Shown here one piece after another: positions 15,292 to 46,957 of a stretch of DNA of 64,000 nt (its first letter is position 1; every line of letters begins with the position of its first letter). The position numbers and the translations under genes were made by a program. The notes below the pieces were generated by a model. It was not told the DNA's origin. It searched no databases and was given only the letters and a program-made list of their open reading frames with translations. Origin of the DNA: Dudresnaya verticillata (lineage: Eukaryota); assembly GCA_977862235.1 (NCBI GenBank), contig OZ374560.1, positions 806,001 through 870,000 of the forward strand, read 5' to 3'.

Positions 15292-15507
15292 TATAGTCGC
15301 TAGCGGGACTATGAGGGTGGCCGTAGTCACTTCGATGACTCCGAGGGCTTTACGGTGAAAATCCGCTACGGAATAAATACTACCTACCAAGGGAGAGCTT
15401 GCCGACCGACGCCGGAGTCCAGGCCTGCGTGGCTACGTGTGTGGGACTCCTCAGAGAGGTACCGGACGGTGGCGTAGAAACTGCCCAGCAATGCAATGCG
15501 GGCTACA
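15292..15507 (-). repeat. 3' LTR of Gypsy B
   Basis: Identical by eye to 20412-20627. Minus-strand termini are TGTAG...CTATA. Confidence 0.97.
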
Positions 15508-15517
15508 CTCCCCCCTT
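15508..15517 (-). other. Polypurine tract of Gypsy B
   Basis: AAGGGGGGAG on the minus strand lies between the pol stop codon and the 3' LTR. Confidence 0.9.
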
Positions 15518-18500
15518 TCAAAGCGCAAGGGCACGACGAGCCTTCTCCGCCAAACCGGTCGGAGTGTTCTTGCGCGCGAGGAGACGGAGCAGCATCTGCG
15601 GAACGTCGTCAAACACGCGTTGCAGGGGCTCCATAGTATCTTCCGAATTCGGTAGGCCTTTCCAGCGGACGACGACTTGCAGGCCGTCGTCGTCCTCGAT
15701 GAGGCGCATCAGCCGAGCAACGGGCATTCCGGTTTCGGACGACAGCACGTGCGGCATGATTGCCGTCGTGTTCAGCGATGCGTCGCGGTAGAACTTCAGA
15801 CGCGTGCCGTGAATGTCCTCAACCATACCGTTCCGGAGATCCTCGACTTGAAACACATAGGCGTTGAGCGCTTTCACAATCCGTCGCGGACCGCGCCAGC
15901 GCAGGGCTAACTTCTCGCCCTTGAAAAAGTCCTCTCTTGCGACGAGGACAAAGTCGCCTTCCGTGAAGTTCGGAAGCGAGCCGCGCGAGGCTGCTTGGCG
16001 CTTGCGCTCGCGGGCAGACCGTACGGAATCGCGCACCACAGGGTGTAGCTCAGCGACCCGGGCCTTGAGTTCGGATACGTTCAGCATCCGTTCGGCTTGT
16101 AACTCCTCAACCGTTATCGGAGTAGCAGTAGATGTCCGTAGGAAAGACGATATAGGCGGTGTTGGTTGCCTGCCGGTAAATGCCGTGATCGGAGCAATGT
16201 TCTTCCGTCGCGGTGAGGGCGCATTGTTGAGCGCACTTTGCACGAGCGGCAGGATGTCGGGCCATTCCTTGAAGTGCATCTGAAGCTCAGACACAACCGA
16301 TCGGAAGACGCGAAGCAGCTCCTTTCCTAGGCGTTCAACGGCACCGTTGCTCCACGGACTGTACGGCAGCGTGAAGTGATGCGGAACGCGGAGGCCTTTC
16401 GCGAGCAACCGAAGGGTTTCGTTGCGGAAGTGCGTGGGGCCATCCGACATCCATTCGTTCGGAACTCCAAAAGAGGCACACCAGTCGGTAAGGGCGTGCG
16501 CGGCGTGTTCGGCAGCAGTATCCGCAGACGGAAAAAACCAGGCGTACTCGGAATGGTCGTCTCTGACCATGAGGACGTACTTTGCGCCATCCGTGCTCGG
16601 ACCGACCTCGATGTAATCGAACTGTACGAGGTCGTTGGGGCCAGTACCGTAAACGGAAGGTCCGAAGGGACGCGGTATCTTCCCCCCTCCAAGTGTCGAT
16701 AGACAGTGGATGCAGGCGCGTACAAAGGACCGGACGTCGGTTGACATTGTAGACCAGAAGTAATACTTCCGTAAAACCGTTTCGGTAGCGTTCTGTCCTC
16801 GATGACCGCTCGGACCCGTGTGCGCGATGATGCACAATCGAAGTTGCAAGTCCGAAGCGGAGTCGGGAATCCAAATTGCACCGGTCGGATTGCGCCAGAC
16901 GTCGTCTGTCTTGGCGAGATTCACTGGCCGAGCGGTGTCGTTAGCGAGTTGGGTGCCTACGATAGCCTGTAGCGAAGGCCAATTGAAGTCCGAATCGGAA
17001 GTAGATGGAAGTTCGGGAATACGGACGAGACGCCGAATTGTGCGGGGGGCCGACCATCGGCCCAGTAGATCCGCCCACACGTTGTCGGTTCCCTTGATGT
17101 GGAAGCACGTGTAGTTGTACATGCTCAACCGGACGGCCCAGCGAAGTACCTTACGGAGGGTTGTCTGCGAGAGATCAGGAACAACCGAAAGCGGATCAAA
17201 CAGGAAGATGAGGTTGTTGTGGTCGGTGAAAAGATCAAAACCGTCCGGAGTAGCGGCGAGCCAGTGCATGCGTTCGAGCGACGCGAGCACGGCGTAGGCT
17301 TCCTTCTCCAGGACTGACCAGCCCAACTGGGTGGTGTTGAACCGACCGGATAAAAACGCGAGCGGCTCGTGCCGTTGCTGCGCGTGCGGTTTCGACAGGT
17401 CCGTGCGGGGAACCTGGGTGACGATACCCGACCAAACCGTGTCGGATGCGTCGGTGTAGAAGCACAACCGCTTGCGGTCGTCGCGGTGCGACAGGGTAAC
17501 CTGGTGCGCGAGAGCGGTTTTGCACGCCTCGAAAGCGGCTTGCTCGGACTTGTCCCATCCGAGTGCGGAAAGTTTAACACGGGCCACAGCGCGTTTTGTG
17601 CGCTTACCGGCTCGGTGGTAGACCCTTTCCATAAAGTCATGGAGCGGTTGCACGAGCTCCGTAAACTGCGGAATTCCGTTTCGGACCCACTGAAGCGCAC
17701 AGATAAACTGTTGAAGATGCGCTCCGTTGGTCGGTGGTTCCATGTGCAGTAAACCGTCCAGCTGGCGGGGGTCGTAGCGGATTCCGTCTTCGGAGATCAG
17801 GCGACCGCACCACCGTACGGTTGTAGAAAAGAGCATGCACTTGGCGGGGTGCAGCTTGAGGTTGAGTGCAGCGCACAAGGCGAAGAACTTCCGAACGGCA
17901 TCGAGCAATCCGGCAACGGTCTTGTGGTGCAACAGCATGTCGTCCAACCAGTGGAGGATGAACTTGAGCAATCCGGGCGGAAGTAGCGTCGCCAGCGAAG
18001 ATTGCAGGTGGGTAACGGCATTTGTCGTGCCGTGTAGAACCCGTGTCGGAGAATAGATTCCGTCCGGAGTAATGAAGGACTGCAGCATCTGCGAGGCCTC
18101 ATCCAACTTGAGCTGCCAGTATCCGTGCGACAGGTCGAAAGTCGCGAAGAACCGAGATTCGGAGAGCTTGGTTAGCTCGTGCTCCAAGTTCGGCATCGGA
18201 TACTGGTGCTTGACGGTAAACTTGTTCACCGGGCGGAGGTCAACCGTGAATCGGAATCGGGCAGGACCAGGCTTCGGCACGAGAAGCGGCGCACAAGCCC
18301 ACGGCGAAGTTGGGTTCGGGTACGCCATTCCGTTTCGGACGAGCTGCTCGACGAATGCAGCCAGAAATTCGCGCTGTTCACGCGAATAATTCCGGAGTCG
18401 GACCTTGACTGGTTTGGCGTCCGGGGTGAGCTCGATCTTGAGCGGCGTGATTTCTGCCGGAGGTCCAGCGGAAAATCCGGTTCGGAATATGTTGACGTGG

Positions 18501-20323
18501 CTCTCGACGAGCTCAGTCAGCTCCTTTGCAGATTCCGACGGTAGACCGTTGTTCCGTGCGGTTTGTAGCATCCCATCGATCCCGGCGCGGATGTCTTCTT
18601 CCTGAGCGGTATCCACGGGATCGAGGAGAGATTGATCCGGGAACGGGTCTTCTTCATTCCGAGCGGTGTAGTAATTGACGCGAGGCCTTTCTGCAGCCTG
18701 CGGTCCACTTTTCGTTTCGGTTTCCGTTTCCGGTCCGCGAATGCGGTTGAGGCGAGCGATCATCATGCGACTGATAGCTCCGCCTCGGTTGAGTGTAGTC
18801 GGGTTTCCGATGTGCGAACAGTCGGACCCGTCCAGTACCGCTCGGTTGTGTTCGAGCAGCGTGCGCGTGTCGACCTGTAGATGCTGTAAGACCGGGAGGC
18901 CTATCAGCAGGTCTTCACAGGCCAAGTCATTGTCCGCGACGAGGAACGCGACGTTGGCGAGGGCCAGCTGGCCGCTTGAAAGATGTAAAACCGTTCTCGG
19001 AGCAGTCCACTGACGCGAAAATGAAAACGTCTGCGGGTCCGTTCCGGCTTTGAGCGCGACGCTCAACCGTACCGGAGCGATGGCGGTTATCTTTCCGATT
19101 CCGCGGATGACGGCGCGCTCAGCGAGAGCAGGCGCAACGATGCTATCGTCGCTTCCGTCATCACAGCGGCCAGTAGCTTCCAGCGATGTTTGTCCGTCGG
19201 AAACCGTAATCGGACAGGAGGGTTTCACCTCCGAGTCGGTGTCCGATGCGGATGCGGCCTTCTTCTTACTGTGCAGTCTGCCAGTAATTCCGTCTTCGGT
19301 TCCTTTATCCCTTCCGGTCTCGGGGCTTGCAGAGGAGCTGTAACTCCCCTTTCTGCTGCGCGTAGACCGTGCAGGGCCGTCGGAAGCCTTTTTGGTGGCA
19401 CGTTCGGCCAGCATCTTGTCCTTTTCCTCCTTGGTGGAGTCTGGACAGTCCTTGATAAGGTGCTTGCGCCCCTTGGACTTGCAAGGACCGTACGGACAAT
19501 CGGGAAACGGGCGCGAAGCGCCGCCTCCCTTGCTGTGTTTGGTTGTTCCGGATCCGGGCGGTGTAGACTTGTCGGTCTTACTTCCGGATCGGTTCTTGTT
19601 TCCCTTATTACCGTCGCGGTTGCCGGCCCGGTTCTTGTTGGGCCGCGGACCGCTGTCCACCAGCTGAAAAGCTTCGGACAACCGAACGGCGTGTTTCATG
19701 AACTTCTTGAAGTCCTTCTTCAGATCATGCTTGGAAAAATCCAGATCGGATTGTAAGCGATCTTTGAGCGAAACCGGTCGGATTGCAGCCATGATATGAC
19801 CAACAGCGACCTTCTGGTTGCTGTTAAGTAGCCAAGAAATCCCGTTTCGGCGTAGAAGGGCGTGATAGGACACGAACAGTGTCTCCATCCGAGAGCGGGC
19901 GTTCTTGTCGCTCATATCCATGAGGATCTCTCGAGCCACGATAGCGTCCAGCGTCTCGAGCGTAACCGTCTCGGTGGATTCTTCGGCCTTCTTGTCTAGG
20001 TAGTCGCGGAGAACCGAATCGGATAAATCTTCATAACTGTCGACTCCCTCGAGGAGATCGAGAGCGATGGCCGATTCGAGGTACTCGGGGTCAACGCAAA
20101 ACTTGAGGTTGACCGGACGGACAGCTTCCGTCGTGGTTGACTCGGCAGCGGTGATCTGCTGCGCACGGGCCGTAACTTCCTTGCTGTACTGATCGTACAG
20201 GCGGAGGAATACGCGGATCGACTCCGCATCCGTACGGAGTAGTCGCGGGTGATCTACCGATGTAGCCACGAATGACGCGCCTTGCGTCGCGATTCCCGGC
20301 GGCGTGGTTGAAGCCTCCGTCAT
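15518..20323 (-). CDS. Gag-Pol polyprotein (gag, Zn knuckle, protease, RT, RNase H, integrase, chromodomain), 1601 aa
   Basis: Motifs: CPYGPC..H...DC, CDDGSDDS protease, FTVDLRPVN and HWLDD RT, YTDAS/EKEAY/TDHNNL RNase H, HHCC and DDE integrase, RWRGPRR GPY/F-like motif, and a C-terminal VRWKGLPNSEDTMEP chromodomain. Confidence 0.97.
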   Translation of the reverse strand: MTEASTTPPGIATQGASFVATSVDHPRLLRTDAESIRVFLRLYDQYSKEVTARAQQITAAESTTTEAVRPVNLKFCVDPEYLESAIALDLLEGVDSYEDLSDSVLRDYLDKKAEESTETVTLETLDAIVAREILMDMSDKNARSRMETLFVSYHALLRRNGISWLLNSNQKVAVGHIMAAIRPVSLKDRLQSDLDFSKHDLKKDFKKFMKHAVRLSEAFQLVDSGPRPNKNRAGNRDGNKGNKNRSGSKTDKSTPPGSGTTKHSKGGGASRPFPDCPYGPCKSKGRKHLIKDCPDSTKEEKDKMLAERATKKASDGPARSTRSRKGSYSSSASPETGRDKGTEDGITGRLHSKKKAASASDTDSEVKPSCPITVSDGQTSLEATGRCDDGSDDSIVAPALAERAVIRGIGKITAIAPVRLSVALKAGTDPQTFSFSRQWTAPRTVLHLSSGQLALANVAFLVADNDLACEDLLIGLPVLQHLQVDTRTLLEHNRAVLDGSDCSHIGNPTTLNRGGAISRMMIARLNRIRGPETETETKSGPQAAERPRVNYYTARNEEDPFPDQSLLDPVDTAQEEDIRAGIDGMLQTARNNGLPSESAKELTELVESHVNIFRTGFSAGPPAEITPLKIELTPDAKPVKVRLRNYSREQREFLAAFVEQLVRNGMAYPNPTSPWACAPLLVPKPGPARFRFTVDLRPVNKFTVKHQYPMPNLEHELTKLSESRFFATFDLSHGYWQLKLDEASQMLQSFITPDGIYSPTRVLHGTTNAVTHLQSSLATLLPPGLLKFILHWLDDMLLHHKTVAGLLDAVRKFFALCAALNLKLHPAKCMLFSTTVRWCGRLISEDGIRYDPRQLDGLLHMEPPTNGAHLQQFICALQWVRNGIPQFTELVQPLHDFMERVYHRAGKRTKRAVARVKLSALGWDKSEQAAFEACKTALAHQVTLSHRDDRKRLCFYTDASDTVWSGIVTQVPRTDLSKPHAQQRHEPLAFLSGRFNTTQLGWSVLEKEAYAVLASLERMHWLAATPDGFDLFTDHNNLIFLFDPLSVVPDLSQTTLRKVLRWAVRLSMYNYTCFHIKGTDNVWADLLGRWSAPRTIRRLVRIPELPSTSDSDFNWPSLQAIVGTQLANDTARPVNLAKTDDVWRNPTGAIWIPDSASDLQLRLCIIAHTGPSGHRGQNATETVLRKYYFWSTMSTDVRSFVRACIHCLSTLGGGKIPRPFGPSVYGTGPNDLVQFDYIEVGPSTDGAKYVLMVRDDHSEYAWFFPSADTAAEHAAHALTDWCASFGVPNEWMSDGPTHFRNETLRLLAKGLRVPHHFTLPYSPWSNGAVERLGKELLRVFRSVVSELQMHFKEWPDILPLVQSALNNAPSPRRKNIAPITAFTGRQPTPPISSFLRTSTATPITVEELQAERMLNVSELKARVAELHPVVRDSVRSARERKRQAASRGSLPNFTEGDFVLVAREDFFKGEKLALRWRGPRRIVKALNAYVFQVEDLRNGMVEDIHGTRLKFYRDASLNTTAIMPHVLSSETGMPVARLMRLIEDDDGLQVVVRWKGLPNSEDTMEPLQRVFDDVPQMLLRLLARKNTPTGLAEKARRALAL

Positions 20324-20411
20324 GTCGGTATGACGTTCCGTTCGGAATCCGAGATCGATGGTGTTGGGCGATCGGCGGGTGATCGAAGAACTAGCTTAAA
20401 CTAGTGATCAC

Positions 20412-20627
20412 TATAGTCGCTAGCGGGACTATGAGGGTGGCCGTAGTCACTTCGATGACTCCGAGGGCTTTACGGTGAAAATCCGCTACGGAATAAATAC
20501 TACCTACCAAGGGAGAGCTTGCCGACCGACGCCGGAGTCCAGGCCTGCGTGGCTACGTGTGTGGGACTCCTCAGAGAGGTACCGGACGGTGGCGTAGAAA
20601 CTGCCCAGCAATGCAATGCGGGCTACA
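20412..20627 (-). repeat. 5' LTR of Gypsy B
   Basis: Identical copy of 15292-15507, 88 nt upstream of the gag ATG. Confidence 0.97.
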
Positions 20628-23822: not shown

Positions 23823-24806
23823 TTTGCCGAGAATTTGATAGTAATACTGCGACAAATGCTAACGGGAGATCGCGTCTAACCGGCTATGGGTGACAGCAAG
23901 TGGCTTCAGCTGTAGCAGCGGGTCACGAGCAGTGAAGCGAGGGAATTGAATTGGATAGAAAGATTGCTGCCGCGGCGGGAGCATCCAAGTCGTGCGTGGT
24001 TGTTCATTGTCGAACGAGAGCACTGTGATAGACAATCCTTTTCAAGGTGGTACCAATGGCACATTTATATGGCGCCTGTAAAGCACAGCGGCAGCATACA
24101 GCCCACCTTGTAGAGCTCCTGTGGGGGGAACGGCACGGGCAAAGCTTTGGAATTACACTAATGTCTTCCGTAGAGATCGGGGCAACGGTTTTACGGTGCG
24201 GAAGAAAAGAAAACTCAATGTGGCCTGGTCGATGCTGTGATTTGCTGGCGACTTGCGTTCGGAAATGCTTTCCCGGCTAAGTGGAACAACTCTGAAACCA
24301 GCAAGCATCCCTTTGCTCTCAAAGTGGAGAGTAAGCCGCTTAAGGGGACTCAATATGCCCTGTTTCTAACACGGTGGTCAACAAGCTTACGCCTGTTAAC
24401 TGAGACCGCGAAACAAAACAACGTGGCGGAGGCCTCCGCGGAGCGCTCTTGGGAGGGGATGAGGTCCCAGCGGCAAGACGCAGTGTGGGTGTTACTATAG
24501 ATACAGGTGGCTGCTTTGTCTATTAGCCCCAGGCAAGCTTATAAATTTGCTACGACATCCCAACGGGACATTCCAGCAACACCGTCGGACGCAGACGCAA
24601 AAGTATGCCTTCGACAGTCAAGGAGACCTCTCGGTGCGGCAGTTTTGTCATAAATTGATAAATTCTGGCTTGCACTTCCCCACTCGAATCATTCCATCAT
24701 TTTCGATTCCGCACGTTCCCCTTCAACACGAAGGTGCGCACAAATGCAGCCCTTTTTTAGACATCAGTTGCTTCCTATCAGAATTTTCCGCTGACATAGA
24801 GACCAC

Positions 24807-25936
24807 GTGCTTTTTTTCAACAGGGAGAACAGCCAGGGCTGCTGTAACGTGCTGCGCTACCAGCCACCTCGCGACCAAGGCTCCACGACATGGCAGACCT
24901 ACCCTTCGCCGCATCTATCGCTCGCCGTCCGGGGTGAGAAGACCAAGAGGGCGGCCAACACGCAGAAGCGGGACTCATGCGCGGCGGTACGCGCGCCGGT
25001 AGGCTGGGCTCAAATGCGCGCGCACCTTGAACTGAGCCGCGACAAGCCTGGAGCCACATGCAGCCCGCTTCCCATTCTTCGATCAGCCGTCTGCACGTCA
25101 GCCTCGCTTCCTGAAAACACACCGCGTGCCAGGCGCTCGCTGCACACTTGCGCCCTAGACATCGCTAGCGCCAAAGATGATGAAGCGGTGACGTAATATT
25201 GACGGTTCCAATGTGCCCTCACATAAGTATTGTCGACCAGCAAGCGAGCCGCTCGGAGCGGACCGCTCCCTGTCGAGTGCGCATTGAGCTCTCTGGTGCC
25301 CAGCGTCGCTATGTGCGTCCAGCGCCGTCTAGCAGAAATCTCACCCACTCGCGTATATCTCCGTAGCGCCACGTCTCGCTGACGCTTTTGTGGAAGTCTA
25401 TTGTGGTCGTGTAGGAAGTCCATATCAAAGTTTTTCTCTCCTTTCACGGAGGCAGCGTTCCATTTCCACCACGCCTGGCATAACATTTTCGGGCGCACTT
25501 TCGAAGTGAATGCCCAGCAGGATGTGACAAGGGCGGCGCCGCCCAGTTTTTCTGAACCTATTCGGAAGCGATGTGAAAGTATTTCAATTCCTGTTCAACG
25601 ATTACGGGACAGATGAACGTACAGTATGTATTGTTGGATTCGTCATATCCATCAGGCCGCAGGCCGCTTGATACCGCCTGAATCCGGCTGACACTGTCTG
25701 TCGCGGCTCTGTTCAAAGTGCGCGCGCATTTGAGCCCGGCCTACCGGCTCGCATATCGCCGTGCGTCAGTCCCGCTTCTGCGTCATGGCCGCCATCTTGG
25801 TCTTCTCACCCCGGGCGGCGAGCGATAGATGCGGCGAAGGGTAGGTCTGCCATGTCGTGGAGCCTTGGTCGCGAGGTGGCTGGTAGCGCAGCACGTTACA
25901 GCAGCCCTTGCTGTTCTCCCTGTTGAATAAAAGCAC
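24807..25936. repeat. Long inverted repeat (foldback/MULE-like), ~238-bp arms with a ~655-bp spacer
   Basis: 24807-25044 is the reverse complement of 25699-25936 at roughly 90% identity by eye. ORFs 24807+ and 25766- translate to near-identical peptides. No TSD was identified. Confidence 0.92.
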
Positions 25937-26229
25937 CCCTGAGGTGGTGTCTTCCAAGATAAACCAAAAACAACGATTGCGGAACACATGGACGTATTGC
26001 TGGATTCATTGAATCCTTCAGGCGGTGTTGGTGCAGTGTCAGCGCAGATAAACCAAAAAATCAAGCGTCCAGATTCAAGCCACTCATATCAACTCAACAC
26101 CAATTCTCGAAAGATAGCGATGACGTTTTTCCAATATTGAAGCGTGTCGCGGTAAATGTTAATAGACTCAAGCTTGTTGACCACCGCGTTAGCAACCGTG
26201 CGTATTACTTCATACAGAATAAAAAAAGT

Positions 26230-26832
26230 CAGGGTCGTATTTGTGACTACCGAAAACAGAGGTTTGGAAAGTCATAGTCATGCCCTTTTTATACCAAGTC
26301 AGTCATATTCAGTCAAATAGCAGTCATCTTTACATATCTACAACTTTCGCGGCAACTTTATGCACTAAACGCTTAAAGTTGGCTGCGTGCGGGTGCAACA
26401 ACCCCTCTTGAGGTAATCTGATCTCCTGCAGCTCGCTTTTCACGAACACGCGAATCATCTCAGACATTTCCAGCGTACTTGTTAGCAAAGACTGGCTCTG
26501 ATTTCCTTCACGTCTTCCCAGATCACTGAAGAGACGCTCGGCTGGGGCTAAAGTATCGTTGCTAAAGTCGAGGGCGATACTTTGTTCAGTGCTCACATCC
26601 CAGCAGATCGTAGATTGGCTTGACGCGGCATGCTCTCCGCCGGCGGCGGCTGGGGACGACCGGCGGCGGCCGCCAGCACATGCTCTCCACGTTGTACACC
26701 GGGGACACATGTACAGATCACCACGTGTCTTTTGTGTATCCAGCGTTTAGTCAGTCAGCGAAAAAGGGAGAGTCAGTCAGTCAAAAGTCACCTAAATTTT
26801 ATGCCAGTCAGTCAGTCACAAATACGGCCCTG
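26230..26832 (-). mobile_element. Internally deleted non-autonomous hAT DNA transposon (603 bp)
   Basis: 19-bp TIRs CAGGG(T/C)CGTATTTGTGACT with one mismatch. 8-bp flanks AAAAAAGT and CAAAAAGT give a 7/8 TSD. Subterminal AGTCA repeats are present, and the minus-strand remnant APAERLFSDLG...SLLTSTLEM resembles the hAT C-terminal dimerisation domain. Confidence 0.88.
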
Positions 26833-28148
26833 CAAAAAGTCCCGTTACGGGGTCTACTCTGAATCTTGCGATTAAAGGGATGCTTACTTGCTTGCTCAAT
26901 AGGATTTGAGTGTGTTTACTTCTGCGTCTCGGGTTCATGGAAAACACACTACGTATCTTGGTCTGGAAATATGTGTATTGAGGGCGCGAACGGGCTGACG
27001 CAGAATAGACCCGTATGGCGGATCTGGCCCGTTGCGTGGGCAATGAGAGCGAACGGGGCTGGTGACGGGTTGAAATGGACTAGAATGATCAAAATGGAGC
27101 GTATACGAGTAAGCGCGCTCTGGGTGTGGCACACAGAGATCAGACTTGAGAGAGGGACAGTACGGAAGGTGGCCAAGTGCCATCAAACTATCAGCATACA
27201 AAGGGTGAAGCACTGGGATTCTAGTAGGGCAGGCGTATAACGTAGCGGGGATTACAGAAATCTGCCCAAGCCATTTCGGCATTGCTGCGCGGAGGGAAAT
27301 GTCACAGGTAGCGTGCTAGAGTTGGCTGAATCTGAAGCCGTTTGAAGATGTGATTTTGGATGCGAAAGAGGGTTCGTTGCTTGCGGAGTCTGCGCGAGGC
27401 ATATTGGTCGTTCCCTGTTCGAAATCCTGCACGCTGTCCAATTTTAATGGCGTTCCGTGGGGGCGGGGTCACGGCTAGTGTATAACCGACGTGGACCACC
27501 TTAAAACAATCAACAAAAATGAACAATCACATAATTCAAGAACGAAAAAACAATATGGAAATGAAGGCGTGCTGGAATCAAGGGGAAGGGGACTAGATTC
27601 TTTTAATCTGTGCGCTCATGCAGTGAGTCACCAGAGGTTCTTTTGGGCTTTTGCCCGCTTGGATGTACAAATCGACGGCTTTTCACCTCTCAGTTGTTCG
27701 ATTTAGTCGCAGCTTTACATCCGACTCCGCCTGTGAGTTCAATAATCCTGCAGAATGGGGTATTGGAGACTTCCTAGCCACTCACCAAAATATTTTACTT
27801 ATCAATTTCACCATAGAATCTGAACATCACGAAACGAATGGCTCTAATTTTTGTTTCCAGTTCTCAACAACTACCCAACTGGGAAAGGAATTCTGTTTAC
27901 TGATTGTTCATAGTAGCATAGTTTGCTTTTCACTTGGAGATCATGTCAACTGAAACATTTAATGAACTATCAGCAAGAACGAAACCCTGTTATGGCAGTG
28001 AAAGGATGCTAGTACTAAAAAGAGCGGGGATATCTAAATGGAAAGAGATGATGTTTGAATGCAGGGTTGGTCGACGAAGCGGATTTGATATTTGCTTCCA
28101 AAGCTGTGCTTCATGTCCTTTGCGTATGGATACGGTGTTACACTTTTC

Positions 28149-28442
28149 TTAGTAACAGCACTGCCAGTTCAGGAATCCCTTCCTGACAACCCTACAGTCA
28201 CCGATGAAGTTGATACAATCCAGGCTAGCTAGCACGGGGTCTGGCCAGCGGAAGCAAGGACACCACGCAGCTCGGGAAGCGTTAGGAACGCTTTTTTCAT
28301 CCAGATCCGAGGTCGCATCCATGTCTGAAGAAATTTCCAGTTTGGTCCTCTCTGCCTTACTCTTCGAGATAGAGGGTGCTGCAAGAACAAATGTTGAAAA
28401 TGATAGTAAGACACTTAGCAAGAATAGGGTGCAAAACTTCAT
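28149..28442 (-). CDS. Secreted cysteine-rich prepropeptide, defensin-like (97 aa)
   Basis: Signal peptide MKFCTLFLLSVLLSFSTFVLA, an acidic pro-region, and a C-terminal CxC-x12-C-x6-C-x11-CC module containing GxC. Confidence 0.8.
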   Translation of the reverse strand: MKFCTLFLLSVLLSFSTFVLAAPSISKSKAERTKLEISSDMDATSDLDEKSVPNASRAAWCPCFRWPDPVLASLDCINFIGDCRVVRKGFLNWQCCY

Positions 28443-29477
28443 TGCGAGGGTTGCTTGTTTGGTAAAATGTTGAAGTGGTCTTTGGCTTGTAAAAGAAGGT
28501 ATCAGGACTCATTTGACTCTTTCGCACACATTGCAAGCTCTTAAGTACCCCTCTTGAAGACATATCTTGTCTTCCTATTTTCGGAACGGGCTTTCTTGAT
28601 GACATTGACTTCAGAGTTGGTAACCGGAAAACAAGGCATGGTTTGACATTCTCTTGCCAGGACAAGTCGTGGAGGCCTGGAAATGTACAAAGTGTAATTT
28701 GTATGCGAGCAGTGATGGGTAAAGAAGGCTTCAATGGCAAGAATGATTTGCCAAAGTTGTGGAATGTTGGAGTTCATGATAAAGAGGCAACAACTTAAAG
28801 CGGAATGACAATATCCAGGCTAGTTCCACTTCAATCTTTGTCTTTAGCCCATGTTTCGTTGCTCTTCAAAGTTGGGTTTCAACTTTGGTCACGCAACGTC
28901 AATGGAGAATGGGTGCAACTACTCAGAACAAACTATACAAACAGACCACTACCTCTAGAAACAATGTTTTCCATGCCTCATGAGGACGGACAAATTCAAT
29001 GCTCTCGGTCCAGACGACAACCCTCTAAATGCATGTCACAGTTCCTGATTTTCAGTCTACCTCAGATCAGATCTCCGTGGCGAGATGACTCCTCACAGAT
29101 AAGGCTACAGATATCAAATAGAAGTAGTCCCATTGGTGCGGCTGCGATGCTTGTGCCAATTCGCAAAGTGGTTGTTCATTCCTCATGGTAGCAACAATAG
29201 ACTCAACACTAGGCTCTTCAGAAAAATGTCTCATCAGCGCGGCAAAAATTCTTTCCCCAATGACACACAGGCGATAAAACAAGGTACGAATGAGGGCAAT
29301 GTCTGGATGTCGAAAACGATACTGGGGCTTTAGTATTAGCAATTCTCTGTTGGTCAGAATGGTATTAATGAGTATACACATAACGGATTGACTCGGGAAC
29401 GAACACATCCCAATTCGACCACAAGTGGCGCGGCTTCAGAAAGAAACTTCGGGACCACTCGTCCTCTACGTACTTTC

Positions 29478-33863: not shown

Positions 33864-34352
33864 CTAGGCGATCTCCTTTGCCTGCTTGACAAGCGCGCGG
33901 AATAGCTTCTGGTCTCTCTGCGAGTCCTTCAAGCTAGCAATATAAAGCCTGGCGTCCTCATCCGCAACGGCTGCGCTATCGAGGGGACCATACGAGTCAT
34001 CAGAAGCACCAACAGCACCAATCTCCTGCTCGGCACGATTGTACGCCTCCTCCTCCGCCAAGCCTTGCTCCATGAGGCGCATCTGGATCTGTACAAAACG
34101 GTCCGAGATGTGCCGCTCGGCCAGCGACGGCGCCTTGAGATCGACGGGGACGTGGCGCGCGGACGGGTTGCGACGCAGATACTCGGTGCGTAGCCGGTCC
34201 TCCGGATACTCGATCGCGGTCGGGCGCGTCGCCTTAACTGGCACGAACGGCGGGCGCGTCGCTTGCACACTTGAGAACCAGGTGGGACGCGGGACCACGC
34301 CAGCCGAGACCAAGCGCTGCAACGGCTGCTTGAACGGCTTGCCACGCCCCAT
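33864..34352 (-). CDS. MRPS23: Mitochondrial small-subunit ribosomal protein mS23 (Rsm25/MRPS23-like), 162 aa
   Basis: The RPTWF...RPP...IEYPEDRLR...RRNP and FVQIQMRLMEQGLAEEEAY patterns match this family. ATG is at 34352. Confidence 0.8.
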   Translation of the reverse strand: MGRGKPFKQPLQRLVSAGVVPRPTWFSSVQATRPPFVPVKATRPTAIEYPEDRLRTEYLRRNPSARHVPVDLKAPSLAERHISDRFVQIQMRLMEQGLAEEEAYNRAEQEIGAVGASDDSYGPLDSAAVADEDARLYIASLKDSQRDQKLFRALVKQAKEIA

Positions 34353-38051: not shown

Positions 38052-40079
38052 TTAGGAGTTCGTCGAAAACTCCGCTCCGGCCTTTTTAATCCAACGAATG
38101 AAAGCAGACACCCGTGTGAATATCATCGGAAACTTCCAATCCCCGCACCTCACCCCGAAGGATGTCAGTCCCACTAATATGGGTTCTCCTCCTTCGTAAT
38201 ATATCAGAGGTCCGCCACTATCACCAGAGCTGTGTTTGGAAACGCAAGAGCAACAAAAAAAGCAATAAAACAAAAAGTAGTGTGAAGTCAGATCGAAGTG
38301 CCGTCACGTTGGGATTGTACCGTATCTTGTTTCGTATTTAAGTGGAAGAACTTACCAGGTCCCACATCCTCCTCTGGGCAGCACGCCAGCACATATCTGT
38401 AGCGAGTCGGAAATTAATGTACCACGAAGAGTCTCAGTTCCATGAATATGGGCACACGGTTTGTGCGGTACAACTTCAATGTCAACCTGCCGAAGCTTAA
38501 TATCTGCTCGTGCGCCGTACAGGAAGCGCCCATATCCTGCAGCCCTGACATGAGATCCGTCAGAAGGAATACCAAGGCGTGCGTTCACCTTCATGAACTT
38601 TGCAGACTTCGGAGCATCTGATTCAAGCTCGACTAGAGCAATATCGTTGACCGAGGCTGGATCAAACGGATACCTGGGATGGGTAAATACTCGAGTTATT
38701 CCAATCCGAGACCCCCCAGCGCAGTTCGAAGAAGCTTTCGTAGCACCTAGACAGGCAAAATAGTCCCCATCAGCTGCAATTCTGCAGTGTGCAGCAGTGA
38801 GAAGCCAACGACTCGAAATGAGAACTCCCGAACAGCGGAAGAAAGGAGGCATTACAAGGGCCACCATGTAGGGGGAGAGGTTTTCTGAAATGCTTCGACC
38901 TCCAACAATGCTTACTGACGTCTGCAAATCCGAATCGTATCTTGTGTTTCCTGATAAGCCTTTTGCAGAGGGAGCACTCTTCTCGCCGGAGGACCTCTCT
39001 GCAATGACTTGCCCGCCTGGACGTTGTAGAGGAGAAAATTGCCTGGTCGCAATTGGTGGACCGGGCAGGTCGGCATTGATTCGCACAGGACAGATCGTTT
39101 CTGCGTTGACAGTGTTGATACCGATACCAGATCCTCTCGCATCCACTGAAACACAAAAGGTGTTCCTGAAGTACTCCGTCGTCGCACAAATTTCTTCTTG
39201 CACACAGTCATCGGATGAAGTACACGTACGTATGGTCGATGGAAAACATGCGCACAACGGTCCACCACTGCAGGCGCTCAAAGGTGCGTCGAGTGTAAAA
39301 CAGTTCCAGTTCCTGGCGCAGTCGGAATTCTTTCGGCACGGGTCAAGAGTGTATCCATTGGTGTTCTGTATTGTGGAAGTTGTTTTTTGAACCGCGAACA
39401 GACCCTCCTCTGTCTTCATCGAAACGCAAAGAGGAACTTTCCCAATCGGTGTATTTGCACACACCTCTCCCTTCTCGCAGTCTGCATCAATCAAGCAGCG
39501 ATCCAGAAAATCGTCTAAACAGAAGCAGGGGCTTCTTCCGTAGCAATTCGTAACAAACGGAGAGCCATACAGGAATTTGCATCGTCTGGCTCCCTTGCAC
39601 TGTGAATCTTTAGAGCACGGACTGAGCCAAAGACCATCACCCGGCGGTTTTAGGGGCTTTTTCTTAGTGAAGGCAGCAAAGTTCTTGGCTGCAGGAGAAA
39701 CACAGATGGGACGAAGGACGTAGTCGGCAGCGAGGCAAACTTCACCACGAGGGCAGTCAGACTTGGATTCGCAGAATTTCTGTTGCGGAGGTCGACAGTA
39801 GCAGGTTGTTGTTCTCCTGCAAGGGTCACGGCTTGAAGTTAAGCATCTTCGTGGTGCGTTGCAATCTCTGTTTGACTTGCAAATATCGAAAGTCAGGCCT
39901 GCATATGATTGAGCGTCTGGCGAAAATGGGCTGTCCACCTGAAAGTCCAGGCGCTCTTGGTTGGCAGGATGCGGCGCGGGAAGAACATGATAAGATAGCT
40001 TTTCCGGTTGTTGAGCCGCAGAAAAGTTATTTCTGTGCACGCAGATGACGAGTAGAAGCAACACAGCTGCTTTCTCCAT
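38052..40079 (-). CDS. Secreted S1 (chymotrypsin-fold) serine protease with three N-terminal Cys-rich repeats; 2 exons (40079-38356, 38229-38052), 633 aa
   Basis: Signal-like N-terminus, IVGG activation site, LTAAHC and NDIAL. Splicing restores GTCSGDSGGP. Confidence 0.93.
38230..38355 (-). other. Spliceosomal intron (126 nt, phase 2)
   Basis: GTAAGT donor, CTGAC branch site and ACAG acceptor. Removal joins TG+C into the conserved Cys before GDSGG. Confidence 0.92.
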
Positions 40080-45620: not shown

Positions 45621-46957
45621 CTAAAGATCACAAATCCGCTTCACAATGTCCGTCTGGCAGAACCGGTTCCCGCGGCTCTCCGTACACAGCTCGCAGCAAG
45701 CCTGCTTGCACGCATCACTCTGCCCCCACCCCGTCTTGCCCCTCTCACATCTCCCGCCGCTGCGCTCCGCAAGCATCCTCCAGCACCGCGTCCCGACAGC
45801 GATGCACTTGCACGCCTTCCGCCTCTGCGTCACCTCATCGCTAGGAGGCCCGCCCTGCCCGCTCGTTGTCGTCATCGTCGTCGCCGTCGTCGCAGCCCCG
45901 CTGGTCGTCGACGAACGCGTCGTGCTGGGCGCGCTTGTCCCCTCGCCACCGCCCGGCGACACCCCGCCAAAGTGCTCCGGCGTCAGCGCCGCAGGCACCT
46001 TGCCGTTCTTGAACTCGCGCGGCTTCTGGTACTCGGCCGTCACCTTGCACGGCTCGTTCGTGCACACGCCGGGCGCGTCGTTGGCCGACATGCAGCCCTC
46101 GCTGGACCACCGCGTCATGTCGTTGTTGAACACCGGCACATGCTCGCGCTGCAGCGCGGCCCCGCCCTGGATGCGCACGTACGAGCACGACCAGTAGTCC
46201 CCAAAGTACCCCCACGGCTTGGGCTCCTGTTGCTGCTCGGACTCGATGGACGAGCCGCACCCGCCGTACCACACCCACCCCAGCACATAGTCGCCGTCGG
46301 CCACGACGGGAGGGATCGTCACGTCGAACGTGTAGTACCCAGGCGCGAAATCGTGCTGCTCGGCGTCGGACCCGATCAGCCCAAAGCCGAACCGGTCGCG
46401 GCCTAGCTCGGACTGCGCGGCGCGCCGCGGGTTGGCGCCCCAGCAGGTGTAGTAGAACGCGTTGCGCCGGTGCGCTGCCTTGTCCATCATGTCGGACGGC
46501 TTGACCAGCGTCAGCCGCACAAACCCGCCAGGCCCGTGGTTGTTGCGCTGGTACTTGATGGTGACCTTCTCGCCGCGGCCGTACGTGGCCGCCGGGTTGG
46601 ACGGGTCGCCATGGTTGGCGTAGCCGCCCTTGATGGCGCGCAGGTCGCACGGGCCTGGGCAGTTGTCCACACCGAACTGCGGCTCACCGCCCATGCGACA
46701 GGTCTGGGAGTGGGGAGATGGAGGTTGGGAAGGGGCATTGGTTAGCTCAATACTGGGACCGGTGGTGGCGGTGGTGGCGGTGGTGGCGCGGCTACTGCTG
46801 CTACTGGTGCAGCTTGCTGATGCGGCAGGTGGGAGCGGCTTACCATTGGGGCAGTGGACTCCGGATCGGACATCTGCGAGTGGGCCGCGGCAACGGCAAG
46901 AACGGCAGCGACGAGCGCCGCGGCGGCCGGCGGCGGGTAGCGGGGCGCGGCGTGCAT
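45621..46957 (-). CDS. Secreted His-brace LPMO-like copper protein with S/T linker and C-terminal 10-Cys module; 2 exons (46957-46844, 46703-45621), 398 aa
   Basis: A 25-aa signal peptide ends AAA|H. Further motifs are RNNHGPGGF (second His), GDYVLGWVW and DYWSCSYVRIQGG (axial Tyr-like). Confidence 0.85.
46704..46843 (-). other. Spliceosomal intron (140 nt, phase 0)
   Basis: GTAAGC donor, GCTAAC branch point, pyrimidine tract and CCAG acceptor. Removal fuses the signal-peptide exon in frame. Confidence 0.9.

Follow-up and report, generated by a model that had tools for sequence, protein, structure and literature searches.

A probable orphan gene for a predicted secreted cysteine-rich peptide with a defensin-like layout in the red alga Dudresnaya verticillata

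The locus and its genomic surroundings

The window analysed here is the whole stretch of 64,000 nucleotides covering positions 806,001 to 870,000 of contig OZ374560.1 in the D. verticillata assembly GCA_977862235.1, and it has no N gaps. Translation of the window yields, on the minus strand at 28149-28442, an uninterrupted single-exon open reading frame (ORF) of 97 aa followed by a TAA stop, and the 40-aa C-terminal tail quoted in an earlier sequence-only reading of this DNA is reproduced in it. Upstream lies a G-poor, A/C-rich leader (28443-28482, minus strand) that may serve as 5' UTR and start context, with YYGCA directly 5' of the ATG. The product can be divided into a predicted signal peptide of residues 1-21 with cleavage after A21 (28380-28442), delimited by our own heuristic and by a helix at residues 3-19 in the signal region of the AlphaFold (AF2) precursor model; a polar, Cys-free spacer or putative pro-piece of residues 22-57 (28272-28379), recognised by its composition and by low pLDDT at residues 49-60 of the same model; and a putative mature peptide of residues 58-97 (28152-28271) with the framework CxC-x12-C-x6-C-x11-CC, placed by composition, motif positions and two structure models.

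The ORF at 33864-34352 encodes, according to Pfam, mitochondrial ribosomal protein S23 (mS23), which returned 21 matches at 47-62% identity, the named one coming from Gracilaria domingensis (52%). This neighbour points to a florideophyte red-algal host that, judging from these identities, is without a close relative in the protein collection. A secreted trypsin-like protease is encoded about 10 kb from the peptide gene (38052-40079, minus strand). It carries several Cys-rich repeats at its N-terminus, and a GT-AG intron of 126 bp is inferred directly before its catalytic Ser motif. At about 43500-64000 the GC content jumps sharply from ~0.48 to 0.70-0.75 at the start of a block dense in genes of WD-like, Sel1-repeat and kinase-Sel1 type; start contexts are gcc/gac-ATG in this GC-rich block versus gcaATG in the lower-GC genes. 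A 357-aa GC-rich frame at 45621-46694 (minus strand), in which a Thr/Ser-rich linker is followed by a Cys-rich C-terminal module with no Pfam match above cut-off, could belong, as its 3' part, to a gene for a secreted multi-domain protein.

The window also contains two Ty3/gypsy elements. One of them, at 15292-20627 and 7.5 kb from the peptide gene, is intact and very young, with identical 216-bp LTRs, a 5-bp target-site duplication and a single 1601-aa gag-pol frame whose C-terminal chromodomain-like match lies under the Pfam cut-off. Nested inverted-repeat elements occupy 24295-26893, ending 1.25 kb beyond the stop codon of the peptide gene: 238-nt arms of 94% identity (24807-25936) sit inside older 63-nt and 56-nt arms, and an element with 19-nt arms and CAGT-type subterminal repeats lies at 26230-26832. 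No transposase was detected for these elements. The surroundings had been called TE-rich, which is a fair description.

No convincing repeat flanks the peptide gene on both sides. A 26-nt inverted pair (73%; 28083-28108 and 29094-29119) encloses the gene together with 680 bp of upstream DNA, and is probably a chance occurrence; capture by a transposon was rejected because no target-site duplication accompanies the pair and 49 pairs of this kind occur in total. Between 20.7 and 33.8 kb there are 33 long stop-to-stop frames, and the 32 screened (one LTR frame was omitted) had no Pfam match that would make the ORF part of a transposon protein; at 20-38 kb no Rfam family was found that would indicate an RNA gene.

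Evidence for a real gene

We compared the window with 73.5 Mb of order-4 Markov sequence trained on its low-GC part, in which 146,211 ORF starts of 70-130 aa were scored. A signal combined with at least six Cys in the tail occurred at 8 of these starts, at 3 when a Cys-free middle was also demanded, and the combination of a signal with a CxC...CC motif did not occur at all. In the real window one of 178 such ORF starts passes, namely that of the peptide ORF. According to the simulation the looser layout should turn up 0.003-0.007 times in 64 kb, a figure to be read with the layout criteria being post hoc, set with the sequence already known, and the scan spanning very many windows.

The start context is a second line of gene evidence, since it is independent of the protein. 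The YYGCA found before the peptide ATG also precedes the starts of mS23, LYR and the trypsin-like protease, the three nearest Pfam-supported genes, and is present at 8 of 882 background ATGs, the peptide's own ATG counted in; of 13 further starts inspected, just 3 have it. Equally G-poor stretches as the 40-nt leader made up 147 of 10,706 background 40-mers. Furthermore, the GC3 of the peptide ORF (0.54) is near that of the trypsin-like neighbour (0.47). Codon usage is weakly gene-like, as 5 of 38 background ORFs score equally high and the test is too weak to decide. Taken at 28149-28442 on the minus strand, this is very probably a real gene.

Anatomy of the precursor

The precursor has the make-up of a secreted Cys-rich protein, being short, with a signal recognised by heuristic and an even number of Cys limited to its C-terminal part. 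Residues 1-21 pass our signal heuristic, which is not SignalP, with a basic n-region, a hydropathy of 2.7 and a V-x-A cleavage site after A21, in agreement with the signal peptide proposed previously. The six Cys lie at positions 61, 63, 76, 83, 95 and 96 (spacing 1/12/6/11/0), and Gly81-Asp82-Cys83 places a Gly two residues ahead of Cys4 (GxC); the 40-aa tail with its CxC...C...GxC...CC order and 12/6/11 spacing, as first noted, was recovered by translation. The putative mature part has a net charge of +1, a pI of 7.8 and 7 aromatics in 40 residues, with an average mass of 4661 Da and a monoisotopic mass of 4658.1 Da provided that three disulfides form.

The pro-piece contains 6 K/R and 7 D/E. 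It had been described as acidic, which holds for a patch confined to residues 35-50 (net -5); the pro-piece as a whole is merely net -1. It carries an N-glycosylation sequon at N54 and ends in a single Arg57. The precursor has no dibasic or RxxR site ahead of the mature part, which makes R57 a guess as the cleavage point. In the trypsin-like neighbour, a count from the catalytic Ser through the inferred intron puts a Gly at the S1 specificity position, which we take to be the position of Asp189 in Arg-specific trypsins, and for this reason the protease is not favoured as the processing enzyme. Overall, the signal heuristic, the composition and the start context support the suggestion of a secreted disulfide-rich algal peptide that is probably processed.

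Searches for homologues

A 5.8-billion word search gave two candidates, none with E ≤ 10, and a further round confined to longer proteins gave none. With phmmer there was no match at E ≤ 0.001 among 1.84 billion representatives, and exact look-up in the protein collection found none of seven window proteins. Metagenome tblastn returned 397 pattern matches, none of which was confirmed, and phmmer against PDB sequences gave one chance match (E 0.85) in one search and none in another, with no defensin. Pfam assigned no family to the whole protein, to the pro-piece plus mature part or to the mature part alone, with the reservation that Pfam and PDB sequence filters can miss short divergent peptides. 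The best Atlas neighbour of the peptide protein scored 0.81, where shuffled proteins reach 0.8 a third of the time, and the mature part gave no usable match.

Scans with degenerate DNA patterns of the exact Cys spacing found at least 120, at least 120 and at least 118 loci in viral, prokaryote and metagenome contigs, respectively. The 378 matches listed were all unrelated (best non-Cys score 3 versus 168 for the peptide itself), tblastn over them gave none at E ≤ 0.05, and an open frame close to a stop was seen in 27 and a signal in one, with no match combining the two. The homologue check by tBLASTn and similar means that the sequence-only reading had called for, run here on public collections, brought up no relative that could show conserved Cys or purifying selection. 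These blank searches weigh less than usual, because even the conserved mS23 has no relative above 62% and because a 40-residue domain needs high identity to reach an E of 0.001 in 1.84 billion sequences. The Cys framework and the host lineage are unmatched by anything found, while the secreted cysteine-rich prepropeptide is as a kind already known.

Predicted fold

Structure models were single-sequence AF2 predictions of low confidence. The precursor model (pLDDT 60, pTM 0.26) has a strand at 63-65, a helix at 69-79 and strands at 83-88 and 91-96, and the model of the tail alone (pLDDT 68, pTM 0.42) has strands at 59-65, 71-76, 83-88 and 91-96 in precursor numbering. The models conflict at residues 69-79, helical in the precursor but a strand in the tail alone, and they concur in a first strand bearing CxC and a C-terminal hairpin (83-88/91-96) ending in CC; at pLDDT 60-68, both have at least three strands with the CC on the last one. 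The predicted strand order would be compatible with C1-C6, C2-C4 and C3-C5 pairing.

Foldseek found no match for the models at E ≤ 0.001. For the precursor model the best VIA-align match was the plant defensin-like PDFL2.1 (Z 3.1, rmsd 3.4 over 44 aligned residues), a score shared by unrelated and designed mini-proteins, and a further VIA-align search had a ribosomal chain as its best match (Z 3.5). None of the fold searches reached a Z of 5 or more, an additional search gave none at Z 2, and among the fold matches listed (50 of 154 and 50 of 77) there was no alpha- or beta-defensin, an absence that carries no weight. Structure prediction, proposed earlier as a check, returned in both models the hairpin and the first strand, which are predicted to pack together, but no significant fold match.

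Comparison with known defensins

Alpha-defensins have six Cys paired 1-6, 2-4 and 3-5, an Arg5-Glu13 bridge and Gly17, and typically their propiece is anionic and the mature part cationic (excerpts of PMC2803202 and PMC11858525). With the mammalian members (HNP-1, HD5/HD6, equine DEFA) the algal precursor shares the signal, pro-piece and six-Cys tail, the CxC...C...C...CC order with its terminal CC, and the GxC, Gly81 occupying the place of the conserved beta-bulge Gly two before Cys4. However, its spacing does not fit CxC-x3-5-C-x9-C-x6-11-CC, a pattern of our own making for alpha-defensins; the mature part has no Glu and carries Phe after Cys2, leaving no Arg-Glu bridge; and neither the -1 of the pro-piece nor the +1 of the mature part corresponds to the anionic-cationic pairing. 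The equine DEFA20-29 peptides (Cys 66, 68, 74, 84, 96 and 97, Gly82, spacing 1/5/9/11/0; excerpt of PMC2803202) have precursors of similar length and a last loop of 11 identical in length to the algal one, and they likewise lack the Arg-Glu bridge, so that its absence is not decisive alone. The two differ in the Cys2-Cys3 loop (5 versus 12) and the Cys3-Cys4 loop (9 versus 6), there is no sequence or profile match, and the algal host is not a mammal. Because both middle loops differ, Glu is absent and the charge is near-neutral, the algal peptide is, by the sequence features tested, not an alpha-defensin. The earlier link to alpha-defensins stands as far as CxC, GxC, the last loop and CC are concerned, and falls with spacing, the Arg-Glu bridge, charge and Pfam.

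Sea-anemone peptides of the BDS/APETx type begin with CxC and have a long Cys2-Cys3 loop. Four single Cys followed by CC near the C-terminus is the general pattern of the beta-defensin fold, sea-anemone peptides included (excerpt of PMC6627431), and the term 'alpha-style' is too narrow because this layout, together with a signal and a polar propart, is common to beta-defensins and anemone BDS/APETx peptides. In BDS precursors a leader of 19 aa is accompanied by a polar, negatively charged propart, a Lys-Arg site and a 43-aa mature peptide (excerpt of PMC3853724), and APETx-like peptides form four-stranded sheets and are strongly basic, with pI 9.2-9.5 (excerpt of PMC7232172). As far as these excerpts go, the algal peptide shares with the beta-defensin fold, BDS, APETx and the C-terminal domain of big defensins the Cys order, with BDS a polar, partly acidic propart, and a mature size of 40-43 aa; its predicted tail-alone model would resemble the APETx-like four-stranded sheet. 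It differs from BDS/APETx in the missing Lys-Arg site and basic charge and shows no sequence match.

The order of trans-defensins in general, four single Cys and then CC near the C-terminus, is present in the peptide, and also in 29,763 of 500,000 shuffles. Members of that superfamily further have a triple-stranded antiparallel sheet whose last strand sends its two disulfides in opposite directions. Given six Cys, the general order arises in 6.0% of shuffles; requiring CxC at the start lowers this to 0.75%, and requiring GxC as well to 0.033% (165 of 500,000, a post hoc figure). The likeness exceeds accident, but such motifs are reused by small disulfide-held sheets. It is established that defensin-like folds have arisen independently (excerpts of PMC7203481 and PMC9604261). 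Aphid BCR peptides, from another lineage and with no sequence match, offer by description, not by structure, a precedent for orphan disulfide-rich defence peptides reaching a defensin-like architecture independently (excerpt of PMC9604261). The sequence-only reading had left the choice between convergence and distant relationship open; judging from the frameworks compared, convergence on animal trans-defensins is the better reading, and distant homology is unsupported by any sequence or profile match.

In cis-defensins a helix CxxxC is bridged to a CxC of the last strand (excerpt of PMC5234102). The algal peptide has no CxxxC, its CxC is N-terminal and its last strand bears CC, which places it outside the cis-defensins. 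The precursor model would share the strand-helix-strand-strand topology of the plant cis-defensins PDFL2.1, PsDef2, brazzein and Ah-AMP1 (VIA-align Z 2.4-3.1, rmsd 2.8-3.4 over 40-44 residues), a likeness that we take as a mere common arrangement because the Z values tie with those of unrelated and designed mini-proteins.

Possible roles and alternative explanations

We propose a lineage-specific secreted three-disulfide peptide that converged on the trans-defensin layout and would be defensive through hydrophobic binding instead of cationic lysis, a reading by analogy that falls a little short of being probable. The predicted signal peptide would direct the precursor to the ER, where a small, beta-rich fold could form together with three disulfides; the polar spacer would be removed at or near R57, leaving a peptide of about 40 residues, and this would be released into the wall or onto the thallus surface, where its hydrophobic, aromatic face may bind or clump microbes. 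Electrostatic lysis seems unlikely because of the net charge of +1 in seawater. Marine big defensins, HD6 and hBD1 act by hydrophobicity-driven, salt-stable 'nanonets' (excerpt of PMC7203481), and the aromatic-rich (7 of 40), near-neutral algal peptide may be a parallel. The same near-neutral charge is unlike that of most antimicrobial peptides, which counts against defence.

Near-neutral charge and an aromatic-rich surface would also suit binding to a protein partner, and the anatomy that speaks for defence speaks equally for a real secreted disulfide-rich peptide that is a signalling or recognition ligand (in development or gamete and spore recognition) or an enzyme inhibitor, not an antimicrobial. 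The orphan status of the algal peptide is consistent with a fast-evolving recognition peptide. The Cys order with GxC is nearer to host-defence and venom peptides than expected by chance; we regard such a role as the strongest of the alternatives, though a somewhat unlikely one.

If the frame were open by chance, or were that of a gene fallen silent and decayed in intergenic DNA, this would account for the lack of a homologue or family in every search and for an Atlas recognition score of 2104, below the 2300 reached by 91 of 100 known-family proteins. Moreover, the pattern came from a scan of some 250,000 windows, which at the simulated rate per 64 kb will encounter chance cases. Against this, the ORF combines a signal, a polar spacer devoid of Cys, an even number of Cys with their framework order and terminal position, and the start context, and a fast-evolving peptide would escape the searches in a lineage where conserved mS23 itself lacks close relatives. 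We therefore consider this explanation improbable.

A peptide deterring grazers or fouling animals, with an anemone-like four-stranded beta-defensin-type fold acting on animal ion channels or receptors, is slightly less probable still. The four-stranded tail-alone model resembles APETx-like peptides (excerpt of PMC7232172), the anatomy of BDS precursors is similar in its leader, polar acidic propart and mature length, and spider and cone-snail venom precursors are among its feature neighbours in Atlas. The latter score only 0.75-0.78, short of the 0.8 that one in three shuffled proteins attains; there is no Pfam or PDB sequence match and no Lys-Arg site, and the pI of the algal peptide is far from the APETx-like range given in the excerpt.

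A true trans-defensin homologue, whether inherited from deep ancestry, acquired from an epibiotic animal by gene transfer or present in the assembly as foreign DNA, is very improbable: the CxC start, GxC, 11-residue last loop, terminal CC and precursor length agree with equine DEFA20-29 as given in the excerpt, but two of four spacings differ, the Arg-Glu bridge is missing and neither Pfam nor PDB sequences show any similarity, an origin in animals only is described for trans-defensins (excerpt of PMC7203481), and GC content and start context agree with host genes in a gap-free window.

Significance

In the open-licence literature we found no gene-encoded red-algal defensin, bearing in mind that subscription papers and secretome supplements (such as File S1f of PMC12115072) may hold some, and the word 'defensin' has no occurrence in the macroalgal-immunity review PMC8307928. 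Taken as a whole, the locus is probably an orphan gene for a putative defence peptide, defensin-like in its layout but not an alpha-defensin. At 40 residues, the mature peptide is short enough for direct synthesis and testing.

Returning to the putative secreted defence peptide, a bolder version would give it a true trans-defensin fold, with a triple-stranded sheet, opposed disulfides from the terminal CC and a GxC bulge. The processed host-defence peptide of a red seaweed would then be the first such case outside animals and would stand for a whole family of small immune peptides in algae that gene annotation overlooks; we consider this version unlikely. If the fold proves trans-defensin-like, the peptide would be an exception in a superfamily described as animal-only. 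If confirmed, it would mean that seaweed immunity has a peptide arm as well, and that the defensin layout had one more independent origin.
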